Position numbers and translations under genes: made by a program. A DNA stretch of 64,000 bases from Candidatus Heimdallarchaeota archaeon (GTDB lineage Archaea; Asgardarchaeota; Heimdallarchaeia; Heimdallarchaeales; Heimdallarchaeaceae), in contig JAEOSZ010000089.1 of the NCBI GenBank assembly GCA_016840095.1, positions 1 to 64,000 on the forward strand. The letters are read 5' to 3'. Every line of letters begins with the position of its first letter. Within the stretch, counting starts at the first letter, position 1. This document shows, piece by piece, positions 47,277 through 53,045 of the stretch. The notes below the pieces were generated by a model, which saw nothing but the letters and a program-made list of their open reading frames with translations, was not told where the DNA came from and did not search any database.

Positions 47277-47513
47277 ATGACAAAAATAAAAGTGATTTAT
47301 GGAAATGAAAGATGTGGAGATTGTAAAAGGACAAAGCAATTTCTAAATGAAAGAGGGTATCCTTATGCTTGGATTGATGTAGACAAAAGTACCGAAGGAT
47401 TGCAAAAAGTAAATGAACTATCTGGCAGAATACCAACTATAATCTTTGAAGATGGGTCGATACTTGTAGAACCAACTAACAATGAATTAAAGAAGAAACT
47501 AAAAGAGAAATAA
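47277..47513 (+). CDS. Glutaredoxin/mycoredoxin-like (NrdH) protein
   Basis: CGDC active site, IPTIIFEDGSILVEPTN. Confidence 0.88.
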   Translation: MTKIKVIYGNERCGDCKRTKQFLNERGYPYAWIDVDKSTEGLQKVNELSGRIPTIIFEDGSILVEPTNNELKKKLKEK

Positions 47514-47518
47514 TAGAT

Positions 47519-47944
47519 TCATTTTGTGGTCTCAATCACTGTTTCTTTAACTTGTTTTTTAGAATCAGCACGCTTATCTTTGGAAGTAGTTGCAGTGATA
47601 ATTGGTTGTGCTGTTAGGGGCTCTACACCAAGTTTTTGTAAAGCTTTGACATATTCCTCAGAAAGAAAGAAATTTTTCAAAATGACCCAGTTTGTAAGAA
47701 TGATTACTGGGAGTTTGTCAATACCTAATGCGCAGTGATGTTTGCTTTCAGTTAGACTCTCTTTCTTATCTATAGCTCCACACTTCAAACATATCCTTAA
47801 CCGAGAAGAACGATCATGTAACTTGGATATAGTATCACTATACAATTCTAAACCTGTACTTAAGGGAGCATCAGCTAAGTCTTGAGCATATCTACGAGCT
47901 CTGGATTTAATTTGTGTTTTCTCAGCATCTTTTATTACAGGCAT
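47519..47944 (-). CDS. CxxC...HxC zinc-finger protein, paralog P1
   Basis: SRARRYA, RLRICLKCG, HHC; GGAGG RBS; homologous to 50063, 52135 and 52643. Confidence 0.8.
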   Translation of the reverse strand: MPVIKDAEKTQIKSRARRYAQDLADAPLSTGLELYSDTISKLHDRSSRLRICLKCGAIDKKESLTESKHHCALGIDKLPVIILTNWVILKNFFLSEEYVKALQKLGVEPLTAQPIITATTSKDKRADSKKQVKETVIETTK

Positions 47945-47970
47945 TTTTTATCCTCCTGTTACTTTGACTA

Positions 47971-48238
47971 TATTACACTTATGCAGTAATGTATATATAT
48001 GTATATCTCACGGTAAATATTTCCTATAGATGAAATATTACTGCAATATAAATCAGTTATTAGGTAAAAATTGCCACCAATTCAATAATTTTTTAATTCT
48101 GTTTTGTCTTGTTATTGGGCGCAAATGCGTAGTTAAACGTTTTTGTCATGCCTAATGACTGCATTTTTATTACTGCAAAAAGCGGCAATATATTACTGCA
48201 CAAAGGCCTTTAAATAGGTTGCTGCACAATGCAGTAAT
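47971..48238. promoter_or_regulatory. Divergent promoter with repeated operator ATTACTGC-N5-GCAGTAAT
   Basis: Palindromes at 48169-48189 and 48218-48238 (the latter just after TATA TTTAAATA, 48209-48216); half-sites at 47983, 48037, 48155, 48192. Confidence 0.75.
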
Positions 48239-48264
48239 AACTACAAAAATCCTGAGGTGGAAAA

Positions 48265-48453
48265 ATGCAAACAACTGAAATAAAAAAACTGCTGGATCCC
48301 GAGGTTCGAAGGCTTTACGAGGATCTCAACAAGCTCATGAAATCTCTGACTAAGAGATATTCAGACAAAAAAGTGGATGTATATGAGCAATACTTAGCTG
48401 AATCAATTCGCTACTATTCAAGTTTGAACCTGAGGAGATATGCAAACATTTGA
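48265..48453 (+). CDS. Microprotein (62 aa), first gene of operon 1
   Basis: GAGGTG RBS, downstream of TATA and operator. Confidence 0.7.
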   Translation: MQTTEIKKLLDPEVRRLYEDLNKLMKSLTKRYSDKKVDVYEQYLAESIRYYSSLNLRRYANI

Positions 48454-48463
48454 GGTATAAAAA

Positions 48464-48610
48464 ATGTATGAAAATGAATCTATTATTATGTTGGATCGAA
48501 AGATCAGGGCACTCCGAAAGGAGTTGAATAGGCTCAAAAGAGCTCGTCGAAGTAGAAGAGCAAAAGCTCGTTCTAGATATCCGGTCAGACAATATCTGGT
48601 TTACGGATAG
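48464..48610 (+). CDS. Arg-rich coiled-coil microprotein (48 aa), not in the ORF track
   Basis: MYENESIIMLDRKIRALRKELNRLKRARRSRRAKARSRYPVRQYLVYG; GAGGT RBS; ungapped paralog at 50778. Confidence 0.8.
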   Translation: MYENESIIMLDRKIRALRKELNRLKRARRSRRAKARSRYPVRQYLVYG

Positions 48611-48646
48611 GATATTATCTACCAATAGAAAATTGAGGTGAAAAAG

Positions 48647-48907
48647 ATGGCATCGAAAGTTCAAGTAGAAGCAGTTCGTCAGATAGTAATTGACAATATG
48701 AAGATCTTATATGATTTTGAATTCATAGATGAAGATCTCTATTACACATTCCTAAAGCAATTGATGGAAGGATTATCAGAGATAGATGAGAAGAAATCCA
48801 AACCTGATAAAGAGATATCCAAGGAAAGTTTAGAAAGTGAAATAAGAAAAGCTAAAGATAAAGCTATTGCCCAAAAGCTACTGCTATTTGGATCACTTTA
48901 CTATTAG
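48647..48907 (+). CDS. Microprotein (86 aa)
   Basis: GAGGTG RBS before ATG 48647. Confidence 0.7.
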   Translation: MASKVQVEAVRQIVIDNMKILYDFEFIDEDLYYTFLKQLMEGLSEIDEKKSKPDKEISKESLESEIRKAKDKAIAQKLLLFGSLYY

Positions 48908-48933
48908 AATCCTAAATTAGAAAGGTGAAAAAA

Positions 48934-49122
48934 ATGGCAATAAAATTTGAAACAAAACTAAAACTGCAAGTCATTTTAAGGGGACTTGTAACATTGTTTC
49001 ACTCTCCCTCTCAAAACAAGAAGAAGAATACAAATTCCAGGAGAGTTATGGAAGAGATAAAGAAACGTAAAACCAAAGAGTTAGAAGATTATCTTTTCCT
49101 TTCTAGATATGGGGGGCTTTAA
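48934..49122 (+). CDS. Basic microprotein (62 aa)
   Basis: AAGGTG RBS before ATG 48934; followed by a hairpin and T7. Confidence 0.7.
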   Translation: MAIKFETKLKLQVILRGLVTLFHSPSQNKKKNTNSRRVMEEIKKRKTKELEDYLFLSRYGGL

Positions 49123-49201
49123 GTGCATCCCCTTTTTTTCTCTTCTTCTGTCATAATTAATGAGATAAACCAAAATGAAAACTTATTGGAGGTGAATAAG
49201 A

Positions 49202-51181: not shown

Positions 51182-51273
51182 GATTTAGAAAAGTGAGTAA
51201 ATCCCTTTTCTTCTTCTTATTCTTCTTGCATTTATGATTATAACCTGACTAACCAAAAAAATGGTTGGTCATT

Positions 51274-51438
51274 ATCACGCTGATTGTTTCTTGCTGAAGC
51301 ACTCATTACGCAGCAATCAGTCTGCTGAGGATCAGGATTTGGGCAAAGATGAAAATTGTGTGCGGCTTGTTTTCATCTTGCTCTCCTGAACCTACTCAAC
51401 TGGGGAATACTCTGCTTCCTCTAGCAGAGTATTAAACC
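51274..51438 (+). ncRNA. Putative structured cis-regulatory RNA, copy B
   Basis: Conserved 40-nt block, long hairpin 51328-51393, perfect 11-bp hairpin 51406-51433. Confidence 0.6.
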
Positions 51439-51463
51439 CTGAATAAAAAGAGGTGAAAAAAGA

Positions 51464-51613
51464 ATGATTTCGAACATAAGTCAGATAAAAAGAAAAGCTA
51501 GAATGGAAAAAACATTGTCCTTTATTGGTAGATTTTTAGCTTACCTAATCCCTATATGTGTATTAATTATTGTAGGATTATACTCCTTATCTGCTGTATC
51601 TCAGTCATTTTAG
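51464..51613 (+). CDS. 49-aa membrane peptide, not in the ORF track
   Basis: MISNISQIKRKARMEKTLSFIGRFLAYLIPICVLIIVGLYSLSAVSQSF; GAGGTG RBS. Confidence 0.78.
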   Translation: MISNISQIKRKARMEKTLSFIGRFLAYLIPICVLIIVGLYSLSAVSQSF

Positions 51614-51643
51614 GAATTATGCTGAAAATTAGTCCTTAATTCA

Positions 51644-51667
51644 TTTTTTTTTTTTTTTTTTTTTTTT
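51644..51667 (+). terminator. T24 homopolymer ending operon 2
   Basis: 24 consecutive T, 30 nt after the stop codon. Confidence 0.5.
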
Positions 51668-51772
51668 GAATCTTCAACGTTTGACTCAGAAGATTCTTGT
51701 CTGTACAATAGTGATTTTATCCTTTTTTTACCTAAGAAATATTTTATATACCTGCATAAACGCATAGGGTTC

Positions 51773-52021
51773 ATGGTTGCAATTGTAGTATTGTATGGTA
51801 CTTCTTGGTGTCCAGATGTACACCGCTCAAGGAAGTTTTTAGACCAAAAAGGTATATCTTACAAATATATTGATGTTGATCAAGATGAACACGCAGCTCA
51901 AACTGTAAGAGATATGAATGATGGGAAAAGAAAAGTACCTACAATTGTTTTTACAGATGATACCATTCTGGTTGAACCTTCAAATAAGGAATTAGCTTCA
52001 AAATTAGGGATTCAAGCCTAA
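51773..52021 (+). CDS. Glutaredoxin/mycoredoxin-like protein with a single active-site Cys
   Basis: YGTSWCPDV, VPTIVFTDDTILVEPSN. Confidence 0.88.
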   Translation: MVAIVVLYGTSWCPDVHRSRKFLDQKGISYKYIDVDQDEHAAQTVRDMNDGKRKVPTIVFTDDTILVEPSNKELASKLGIQA

Positions 52022-52134
52022 ACTCCTAGTTTGAGGGAACAATTTAAATATTGAGAGATTTCTCTCTTCATGTTGCTGAAGAGATACCTTAATATGTAGG
52101 TATAGCTTCAAACATAATAGCAAGAGGTGTCATC

Positions 52135-52611
52135 ATGCCTAAAATATCCGATGCCGAAAAATCATTTATTCGTTCTATTGCTAGAAGATATGCAATGGGA
52201 TTGTGGGTTTCTCCTTTTAATGAAGGTTTACTAATTTATTCAGAAACCTTTGAAGCACTATACATAAGATCTGCTAGGTGGAAGTTTTGTCTTAAATGCG
52301 GTACTATAGAACCTACAGAGCTAATGGTTGATGATGGGGAACTCAGCAGTGATAAATATACGGAAAAGAAAAAGTCAGAATTAAGGGAGAGAATCCATGA
52401 ATGTACATTGGGTGTAAATCATTTTCCGGTTTTAATAACTACCTCCTGGTACAAACTTAGAGATTTCTTCATGTCTAAGAAACATATAAGAGCTCTTGAA
52501 AATGCTGGAGTAACTGATAAACCTGAACAGCTACCAATCATTCGTGAAATCTTTGAAGTTGCTGAGAAAAACAACTTACCAGAAGCAATTAAGATTGGGG
52601 AGACTTCGTAG
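52135..52611 (+). CDS. CxxC...HxC zinc-finger protein, paralog P3
   Basis: RSIARRYA, RWKFCLKCG, HEC, FPVLITTSW; GAGGTG RBS. Confidence 0.8.
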   Translation: MPKISDAEKSFIRSIARRYAMGLWVSPFNEGLLIYSETFEALYIRSARWKFCLKCGTIEPTELMVDDGELSSDKYTEKKKSELRERIHECTLGVNHFPVLITTSWYKLRDFFMSKKHIRALENAGVTDKPEQLPIIREIFEVAEKNNLPEAIKIGETS

Positions 52612-52642
52612 AAGTAGGAAATTATCTCCTCCCTTTCTATAT

Positions 52643-52999
52643 TTAGACCTTATTTGTCTCTTTGTTCAAATTTTGAACCCCTTTTTTCTCTAGAATTTTC
52701 AAATAATCGTCTTTTAAAAAGAAATTTCGTAGTCTTATCCAGGATGTCGAAACCTTATTCTGAATCTTGTGAAAAGAAACTGGAGGACAATCATGATTGT
52801 TAATAATAAACTCGTTAGGTAGACCGATTTTTCCACAAATTAAACAATATCTCCATCTAGCAGATCGACTATAGAGCATTCTAAAAACCTCATAATATAT
52901 CTGAGAACCATTTTTGAATGAAAGTTTAGCCATTAATTTGCTGAATTGAACTGCTATAACTCTAATTTCTTCCTTTTCTTTATCTGGAATGTCAGGCAT
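52643..52999 (-). CDS. CxxC...HxC zinc-finger protein, paralog P4
   Basis: RSARWRYCLICG, HDC, TSWIRLRNFF. Confidence 0.78.
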   Translation of the reverse strand: MPDIPDKEKEEIRVIAVQFSKLMAKLSFKNGSQIYYEVFRMLYSRSARWRYCLICGKIGLPNEFIINNHDCPPVSFHKIQNKVSTSWIRLRNFFLKDDYLKILEKKGVQNLNKETNKV

Positions 53000-53011
53000 T
53001 TCTCATTCAAC

Positions 53012-53045
53012 TATTACTTAAACAAAGTAATAAGAGGATATAAGT
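53012..53045 (-). promoter_or_regulatory. Operator and TATA box of P4
   Basis: Perfect TATTACTT-AAACA-AAGTAATA (53012-53032) between a minus-strand TTATAT box and the start codon. Confidence 0.65.

Follow-up and report, generated by a model that had tools for sequence, protein, structure and literature searches.

The locus described here lies at positions 47277-53045 of a 64,000-nucleotide stretch of DNA from a Candidatus Heimdallarchaeota archaeon (assembly GCA_016840095.1, contig JAEOSZ010000089.1, positions 1 to 64,000), referred to below as the window. Its source contig, C85, belongs to a genome of 3.44 Mb (G000 in the locus designations used below). The locus contains two operons of small genes, modules A and B, each adjoining the gene of a putative zinc protein, Z1 or Z2, together with structured RNA elements and two glutaredoxin genes (Table 1). 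An initial annotation of the sequence had described two modules with homologous parts in the same order, followed by further zinc-finger paralogues. All of these parts were found, Z3 and Z4 being the paralogues, but the modules are not equal part for part: Z1 is divergent from its operon and Z2 lies upstream of, and in tandem with, its own, and three extra small genes (48265, 48647 and 48934, encoding 62, 86 and 62 aa) are present in module A only. The oligo-T runs noted for the two modules were both found, as were GGT(G/A) ribosome-binding sites at all four of the small genes that had fallen below the cut-off of the open reading frame list.

Table 1. Genes, promoters and RNA elements of the locus (positions in the window; dN/dS, ratio of non-synonymous to synonymous substitution rates)
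Feature	Position	Strand	Description and evidence
Grx1	47277..47513	+	Mycoredoxin-like glutaredoxin, variable neighbour, probably outside the system; Pfam and NCBIfam matches
Z1	47519..47944	-	C2HC zinc protein, putative module A repressor; invariant CxxCG, near-invariant HxC; dimer model; no family match
Z1 promoter	47970..48024	-	13-bp dyad 48012-48024, TATA 47992-48000, then A-type operator half-site
Module A promoter	48038..48238	+	A-type half-sites 48038, 48170, 48193; TATA 48209; full dyad 48218-48238; 13-bp dyad 48063-48075
A0	48265..48453	+	Helical, 62 aa, distantly paralogous to the 48-aa family; dN/dS 0.19-0.29; profile match; folding z to -3.8
A1	48464..48610	+	48-aa coiled coil with Arg-rich tail; hairpins 48511-48524, 48531-48544, 48558-48569; dN/dS 0.28-0.73
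A2	48647..48907	+	86-aa three-helix protein, genus-wide family, conserved C-terminal Gly-Ser motif; dN/dS 0.05-0.08; paralogues
A3	48934..49122	+	62 aa, probable partial A2 duplicate, this genome only
A4	49202..49582	+	Membrane protein with a single helix and 13-aa C-terminal repeats that vary; several relatives have lost it
Structured RNA element A	49636..49769	+	5' hairpin with conserved loop, long 3' stem; z -4.4; covariation; no Rfam match
A5	49798..49947	+	49 aa, basic N-terminus and one membrane helix (hydropathy); oligo-T 49953-49959; dN/dS 0.13-0.28
Z2 promoter	49987..50041	+	13-bp dyad 49987-49999, TATA 50012, B-type 21-bp operator 50021-50041
Z2	50054..50482	+	C2HC zinc protein, putative module B repressor; CTG 50054 or ATG 50063; dN/dS 0.05-0.09; model
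Module B promoter	50560..50750	+	13-bp dyad 50560; operators 50657-50677, 50730-50750; TATA 50720
B1	50778..50924	+	48-aa A1 paralogue, coding hairpins partly decayed; dN/dS 0.29-0.35
B4	50972..51181	+	Membrane peptide, recent 33-bp N-terminal tandem repeat
Structured RNA element B	51270..51399	+	z -3.8
B5	51464..51613	+	49-aa membrane peptide; T24 run 51644-51667; dN/dS 0.26-0.31
Grx2	51773..52021	+	Monothiol glutaredoxin of mycoredoxin-like type; position specific to this genome
Z3	52135..52611	+	Paralogue
Z4	52643..52999	-	Paralogue

Conservation and small genes of the locus

Recurrence of the modules in other genomes had been set beforehand as a test of the proposed system, and they recur in order in relatives: both modules are present with the same order in genomes G013, G012, G018, G001 and G023; in G008 they are split between two contigs, and other genomes have a single module. 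The flanks are a flavin adenine dinucleotide (FAD)-oxidase/electron-transfer flavoprotein (ETF) operon on one side and a DEAD-box helicase gene on the other, a chromosomal position that is constant across the genus and lies near the same genes in the sister genus. The GC content of the locus (34.0%) is like that of its flanks (33.7% and 34.0%). Logan contigs from public runs matched the locus piecewise with zero mismatches and even depth, with no single contig spanning all of it and with the best run possibly being the source sample; the public runs holding locus DNA were marine sediment metagenomes, with no RNA run among those listed. The two-module locus is real and conserved across an AB_125-like Heimdallarchaeaceae genus, the lineage being taken from the names of homologues (Candidatus Heimdallarchaeota, AB_125 and Heimdallarchaeaceae). 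It is best explained as a regulon that the AB_125 group inherited vertically on its chromosome and whose duplication predates much of the diversification of the genus.

The paired small genes had been described as equal in length and aligning without gaps, and so they do, with 22 of 48 residues in common in the 48-aa pair (48464 and 50778) and 12 of 49 in the 49-aa pair (49798 and 51464). Purifying selection, which had been left as a point to be checked, was detected in pairwise comparisons with close relatives as low dN/dS for most small genes; judged by these ratios, the small open reading frames are selected genes. The values of A1 are raised because its synonymous sites are also constrained. 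The membrane proteins A4 and B4 had been regarded as homologues with tandem repeats. Their membrane-helix regions are indeed alike, but the repeats (13 aa, C-terminal in A4; 11 aa, N-terminal in B4) are non-homologous, and most relatives of B4 have none; as the repeats are unrelated and vary among relatives, only the membrane segments can be regarded as homologous.

The structural model of A2 was of low confidence (predicted template modelling score 0.29) and matched only generic helical hairpins. Several likenesses of the small proteins were discarded: a SHOCT domain in A2 had no Pfam support, proteasome HbYX tails were not conserved, and matches to ribosomal eL41 or to a bZIP basic region were compositional only. 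Other members of the A2-like family, both proteins of 80-90 aa and peptides of 32-38 aa that correspond to the C-terminal part only, are encoded in G000 at C107:34235-34870 (L142), C58:1557-1793 and C155:24288-24557, and at loci L126, L128, L129 and L133, the terminal helix and a Gly-Ser-hydrophobic motif being common to all.

Zinc proteins and candidate operators

Z1 and Z2 (the latter counted from 50063) are 54% identical, and seven Z copies are present in this genome, three of them beyond the window. The usual start of Z2, at 50054-50056, is CTG in this genome and ATG in relatives, with the ribosome-binding site retained. The family was found in 24/24 genomes of the genus and 2/2 of the sister genus; among 301 genomes of the phylum outside these two genera there was none except for one stop-containing chance match, and a profile search of 1.84 billion representatives returned only ~23 true members. 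Longer Z forms were not found, which is weak evidence. The CxxCG motif is invariant and HxC nearly so, and because of this conservation the Z proteins are inferred to bind zinc. With 110-160 aa, one CxxCG and one HxC, they fall outside the C(P)XCG micro zinc fingers (below about 70 aa, with two motifs), and with three Cys plus one His and no Pfam match they also fall outside WhiB, which is defined by four Cys and a profile. Nothing significant was obtained for Z, A2 or the 48-aa proteins in Pfam, NCBIfam, PHROGs, PADLOC, PDB sequences or the ESM Atlas, and no helix-turn-helix (HTH) family profile matched any of the 29 Z members scanned, nor did one from NCBIfam match.

The model of Z2 had a predicted local distance difference test score (pLDDT) of about 90 over residues 1-108. 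Fold searches of the PDB, viral and atlas collections gave no significant match, which does not exclude a fold; the best one (Z-score 4.9, root-mean-square deviation 4.3, 64 residues aligned) was non-significant, and a likeness to Vpx, seen in weak rows with Z-scores of about 4, was dismissed as noise. As a homodimer, Z scored 0.53 compared to 0.14 for the best control, the mark applied being one reached by 20 of 30 solved homodimers and by 1 of 23 single chains. Contact agreement between dimer runs was at least 67% and pLDDT at least 77, although one of the three runs scored only 0.09. The modelled interface comprises residues 23-43 and 74-80 and leaves the basic first helix outside. The prediction supports a symmetric homodimer.

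Each module had been said to have a TATA box with a palindrome of its own, and in both operons the TATA box is indeed followed by its own dyad. A-type half-sites occur six times in the module A promoter, compared to 0.04 expected, and B-type half-sites four times in the module B promoter, compared to 0.03; the sites of the module A promoter are kept in G013, G012, G008, G018 and G009. A TATA box followed by the 21-bp dyad ATG[TC]-N13-[ATG]CA[CT] was found upstream of 25/72 Z genes, including unlinked loci with other neighbours, and in 7 of the 1990 upstream regions of this genome, four of the seven at Z loci, the pattern being partly derived from the same sites that it scores. When a matrix was trained solely on relatives, the Z2 and B1 promoters took the top three places among 2318 regions. 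The site of the operon was nearer to that of its own Z gene than to that of the other one in five of six two-module genomes, the sixth (G013) having been compared with the wrong Z1 site. On this comparison, the dyad type follows the adjacent Z paralogue; its interpretation as a generic core-promoter feature was tested and rejected. Archaeal repressors typically bind downstream of the TATA box, and activators upstream of it (PMC5937170). The position of the Z dyad, between TATA and start site at both the own gene and the target, is the one expected of a promoter-occluding repressor. The 13-bp dyad lies 10-13 bp upstream of TATA in 23/26 promoters of Z1/Z2 type.

Z-type dyads are also found upstream of genes for secreted proteins near other Z genes (G000 C85:67823-69226, L143; C47:18164-18760, L141), one of which encodes a NosD-type beta-helix protein; the product of G000 C8:149-1408 is of the same beta-helix type by its N-terminus, and a 13-bp dyad is present upstream. 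From their promoters, the secreted proteins near Z genes may be further targets.

Further loci of the genus also encode members of the 48-aa and 86-aa families, and most of these extra copies lie opposite ArsR-like winged-helix genes. The microprotein operons opposite these regulators carry a TCTCA-N5/7-TGAGA dyad, which is present upstream of most members of the ArsR-like family and never in Z promoters. As at the Z locus, the winged-helix regulators (e.g. G000 C58, C107 and C129/C155) are divergent from the same microprotein families and the dyad is beside the TATA box, whereas their fold is unrelated, the operator is another one, and their loci were found to have no structured RNA of this kind. 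Thus, with the same cargo under another regulator there is another operator, so that the operator follows the regulator; this we regard as the strongest evidence that Z itself reads DNA. The recurrence under winged-helix regulators also means that the microprotein families are a shared toolkit, and the earlier description of the regulon as dedicated goes too far. That the operator tracks the regulator points to Z as a non-HTH repressor, and it is quite likely that it binds the palindrome at its own gene and at the adjacent operon. The proposal that the zinc-finger genes control transcription of the operons holds insofar as the Z proteins are likely regulators whose operators track them; binding and repression we infer.

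The ArsR-like family, of ~10 genes, is itself expanded, with TCTCA-N5/7-TGAGA promoters at G000 C58:1807, C58:2780, C76:6142, C107:34918, C110:2939, C129:3855 and C159:10552, and on promoter sequence it constitutes a predictable regulon. At G000 C155:400-2340 (L140), at the end of C129 and at L121-L124, an ArsR-like winged-helix gene is divergent from genes for a 48-aa-family peptide, a 34-aa microprotein and a major facilitator superfamily efflux transporter; in this genome the locus also encodes a membrane peptide with 11-aa repeats resembling those of B4, and in G020 the transporter is missing. In the operons of G000 C102:1-1620 (L139) and of L125, L127 and L102, the first gene encodes a 42-aa paralogue of the 48-aa peptide, devoid of coding hairpins; a 73-aa acidic helical protein is encoded with it, as is a coiled-coil protein of 445 aa that has an ArsR-like domain at its C-terminus.

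Folded RNA in the operons

A conserved structured RNA had been claimed for each module. The element folds better than shuffled sequences (z -3 to -4.4), and its long stem is 87.5% paired, with double changes in 6/13 pairs, above all slid controls, a figure that kinship can inflate. There are 21 clear copies, every one beside these operons, and at the gathering score of Rfam 15 no family matched, the only hits being three chance snoRNA matches with E above 2. The element is nevertheless optional: it is missing from module A in G012, G018, G001 and G023. Four genomes keep the peptide gene but have no RNA beside it, and contig 11 of G001 shows the reverse, an RNA with no peptide gene. A hammerhead or C/D-box reading was discarded as the motifs are not conserved, and the idea that the loop might pair in antisense with the leader of Z3, noticed by eye in close relatives only, was dropped.

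In the clade of G005, G007, G011, G017 and G022 the element lies inside an open frame of 105 codons, in which the ratio of non-synonymous to synonymous differences per site is 0.29-0.63 (p down to 2e-7); this genome has no such frame over the element. The frame (L045:7630-7950; L042:9563-9880; L040, L041 and L043) has no Pfam match and is confined to that clade, where it could be either a gene formed de novo or the ancestral state. In G012 (L032:5760-6180), an insertion of ~360 bp, possibly with a 4-bp duplication, separates the RNA element from the B5 gene; it has no Rfam match and looks like a non-autonomous insertion element. A divergent module at L097:1188-1900 (G006) encodes a membrane protein with 11-aa acidic repeats and carries a barely recognisable copy of the RNA element.

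Folding was also detected within coding sequences. The 48-aa genes contain three short tetraloop hairpins with A-rich loops and rare codons, 89% paired and with double changes in five pairs. Compared to synonymous re-encodings, A1 folded with z of about -3 to -5, whereas 120 ordinary gene segments were never below -2.5; the A0 coding sequence is also folded (z to -3.8), and B1 of this genome has partly lost its hairpins. The RNA-level layer postulated beside the transcriptional one is borne out to the extent that conserved RNA structure exists, both in the element and in the coding hairpins.

Interpretation and alternatives

The reading that we favour, with a probability of about 0.5, is that of a Z-repressed regulon of small effectors with a stress or envelope role. 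A homodimeric, zinc-bound Z protein without a recognisable HTH would bind the palindrome between TATA and the start site, and its occupancy would block RNA polymerase recruitment at its own gene and at the adjacent operon. A second factor probably activates Z1 and Z2 through the upstream 13-bp dyad, and an upstream factor or signal would lift the repression. The derepressed operons would then yield non-catalytic effectors: the basic coiled-coil peptide, a probable nucleic acid binder, together with small helical proteins and membrane peptides of a single pass. The targets of these effectors would be nucleic acid, partner proteins or the membrane, and the folded mRNA segments would set the relative output of the operon proteins. 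Given this regulator model, a purpose as an inducible programme of stress or cell-envelope adjustment is a tentative suggestion, held with a little less than even confidence, for which the Z-type dyads before secreted proteins were counted as an envelope hint.

Several points weigh against this reading. The strict operator pattern is missing at 47/72 Z genes, some of which belong to the A-type clade or are internal to operons. A trans-acting factor could in principle bind the sites, and no fold or family match supplies a mechanism for Z. The function of the effectors is deduced from composition and gene context, and the pairwise dN/dS of A1 is non-significant in several pairs. A more elaborate, two-tier circuit, for which no counterpart has been described, is speculative and rather unlikely: Z, as a new dimeric zinc DNA-binding fold interchangeable with winged-helix regulators, would gate transcription, and the Arg-rich peptide would bind the A-loop hairpins of its own coding sequence or the downstream RNA in the manner of N or Rev, gating synthesis of the membrane peptides.

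If the Z proteins are regulators, the microproteins might be feedback co-regulators, anti-repressors or helpers of the kind that Brb is for Brz, instead of effectors. Their genes adjoin a regulator at nearly all loci seen, and Brz works with a small basic protein (PMC3184054), but the membrane peptides would be left unexplained, a zipper-only inhibitor of larger regulators had to be rejected as the 48-aa profile finds no matching zipper in the larger proteins of the genome, and the presence of the same families beside two unrelated regulator folds makes a shared binding surface unlikely; we consider this reading unlikely. Less likely still is a locus akin to type I toxin-antitoxin systems (hok/sok, ldr/rdl, ibs/sib), in which the 49-aa membrane peptides would be toxins silenced by the upstream folded RNA or by antisense RNA. 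Short, single-helix, tandemly duplicated peptides behind a structured RNA are what searches for type I toxins look for (PMC2887945), and A5, B4 and B5 have the size and form of such toxins (<70 aa, one membrane helix, often tandem-duplicated). An anti-Shine-Dalgarno-like word is also present in the RNA linker of 16/21 copies, compared to about 25% by chance. Although the ribosome-binding site is often predicted to be paired, its partners change, and pairing with the linker is predicted in only 2/18 scorable copies. In addition, RNA and peptide are separable in relatives, the peptides end a repressed multi-gene operon with other conserved genes, and no antisense gene was identified at the locus, antisense antitoxin RNA and toxicity being marks of type I loci.

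The remaining alternatives are all very unlikely. If Z did not bind DNA and were one of the regulated products of another factor that uses the dyads, its want of a recognisable DNA-binding fold would be accounted for, the dyads being known from sequence; yet the sequence of the operator differs according to which Z paralogue is adjacent, and Z occupies the divergent position that is taken by winged-helix regulators at sister loci. Glutaredoxins acting on the Z cysteines, as in the redox-responsive regulon initially proposed, would fit the fact that Cys/His zinc sites can sense oxidation, and one glutaredoxin lies near a Z gene in ~12 genomes. Both glutaredoxins of the supposed bracket are present here, but the Grx1 gene is broken in three close relatives, by premature stops in G013 and G010 and by a frameshift in G012, with the modules intact where sequenced, no glutaredoxin lies between B5 and Z3 at any of 10 other loci, and none was found at the locus in G005, G007, G011, G017 and G022. 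Moreover, Grx1 has a promoter palindrome of its own, in common with the divergent oxidase/ETF operon. The redox framing is thus not supported; from these comparisons the glutaredoxins appear to be passengers and their bracketing accidental to this genome. A domesticated remnant of a virus or mobile element, with a basic DNA-packaging peptide, membrane coat peptides and immunity-type repressors, would be consistent with the many small genes without known family, the divergent repressor switch and the lineage-restricted families, and Heimdallarchaeia harbour varied mobile elements (PMC8813620). This reading is largely disfavoured: there is no PHROG or PADLOC match, no relative on viral contigs, no tRNA in the window and no integrase among the open reading frames, the GC content is flank-like, the chromosomal position is constant across the genus, and the paralogues are dispersed under host-type regulators. 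Of the marks of a provirus, namely viral hallmarks or integrase, an att site, patchy position and deviant composition, none was found.

Between the oxidase/ETF operon and Grx1, at 47198-47235, there is a conserved AT-rich palindrome after a TATA box, unlike the Z operators, which is probably recognised by a different regulator.

The majority of known transcription factors of archaea are HTH proteins, the Phr-type repressors among them, whereas Z matches no HTH profile and contains a C2HC site. The Z-repressed regulon would otherwise resemble those of Pyrococcus Phr and similar archaeal repressors, which regulate their own genes and prevent recruitment of RNA polymerase (PMC5937170), in its predicted dimer, in the palindrome just downstream of TATA and in the control of its own gene and a neighbouring operon. 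Brz/Brb of Halobacterium salinarum, from the haloarchaeal C(P)XCG micro zinc fingers (PMC2253796, PMC3184054, PMC11241148), likewise combines a small archaeal zinc protein, control of neighbouring genes and a small basic partner; the surveyed C(P)XCG proteins are <70 aa with two motifs, whereas the motifs of Z lie in a helical domain and it has palindromic operators of its own. By analogy, Brz with Brb seems the nearest functional analogue. The WhiB-like (Wbl) proteins of actinobacteria, which contain an iron-sulphur cluster bound to four Cys and act with a sigma factor in stress or developmental programmes, are also lineage-restricted, expanded families of small Cys-containing regulators; Z differs in being C2HC and in having no sequence match to them. 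Lambda N/boxB and HIV Rev/RRE are Arg-rich RNA-binding peptide systems, and SgrS/SgrT and RNAIII are dual-function RNAs; A1 is like them in that an Arg-rich helical peptide is encoded on a transcript with A-rich-loop hairpins, reading frame and RNA structure sharing one sequence, though no homology was found.

An archaeal repressor that regulates itself and a divergent operon is a known kind of architecture; what is undescribed, in the sources searched, is the regulator family together with the microprotein families and the RNA. Literature searches returned no description of the locus, and these and the family searches agree with the initial statement that no described system matches it. If the Z proteins act as proposed, zinc-containing, non-HTH dimeric regulators with readable, paralogue-specific operators would constitute a new DNA-binding fold in the Asgard group closest to eukaryotes, with the limit that the family is found in two genera only. 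The locus also brings to light a set of microproteins, present throughout the genus and unannotated, and a sequence that is non-coding RNA in one clade but lies, in another, within an open reading frame under selection.

Elsewhere in the window, at 58175-62544, three tandem paralogous secreted proteins of ~455 aa each are encoded.

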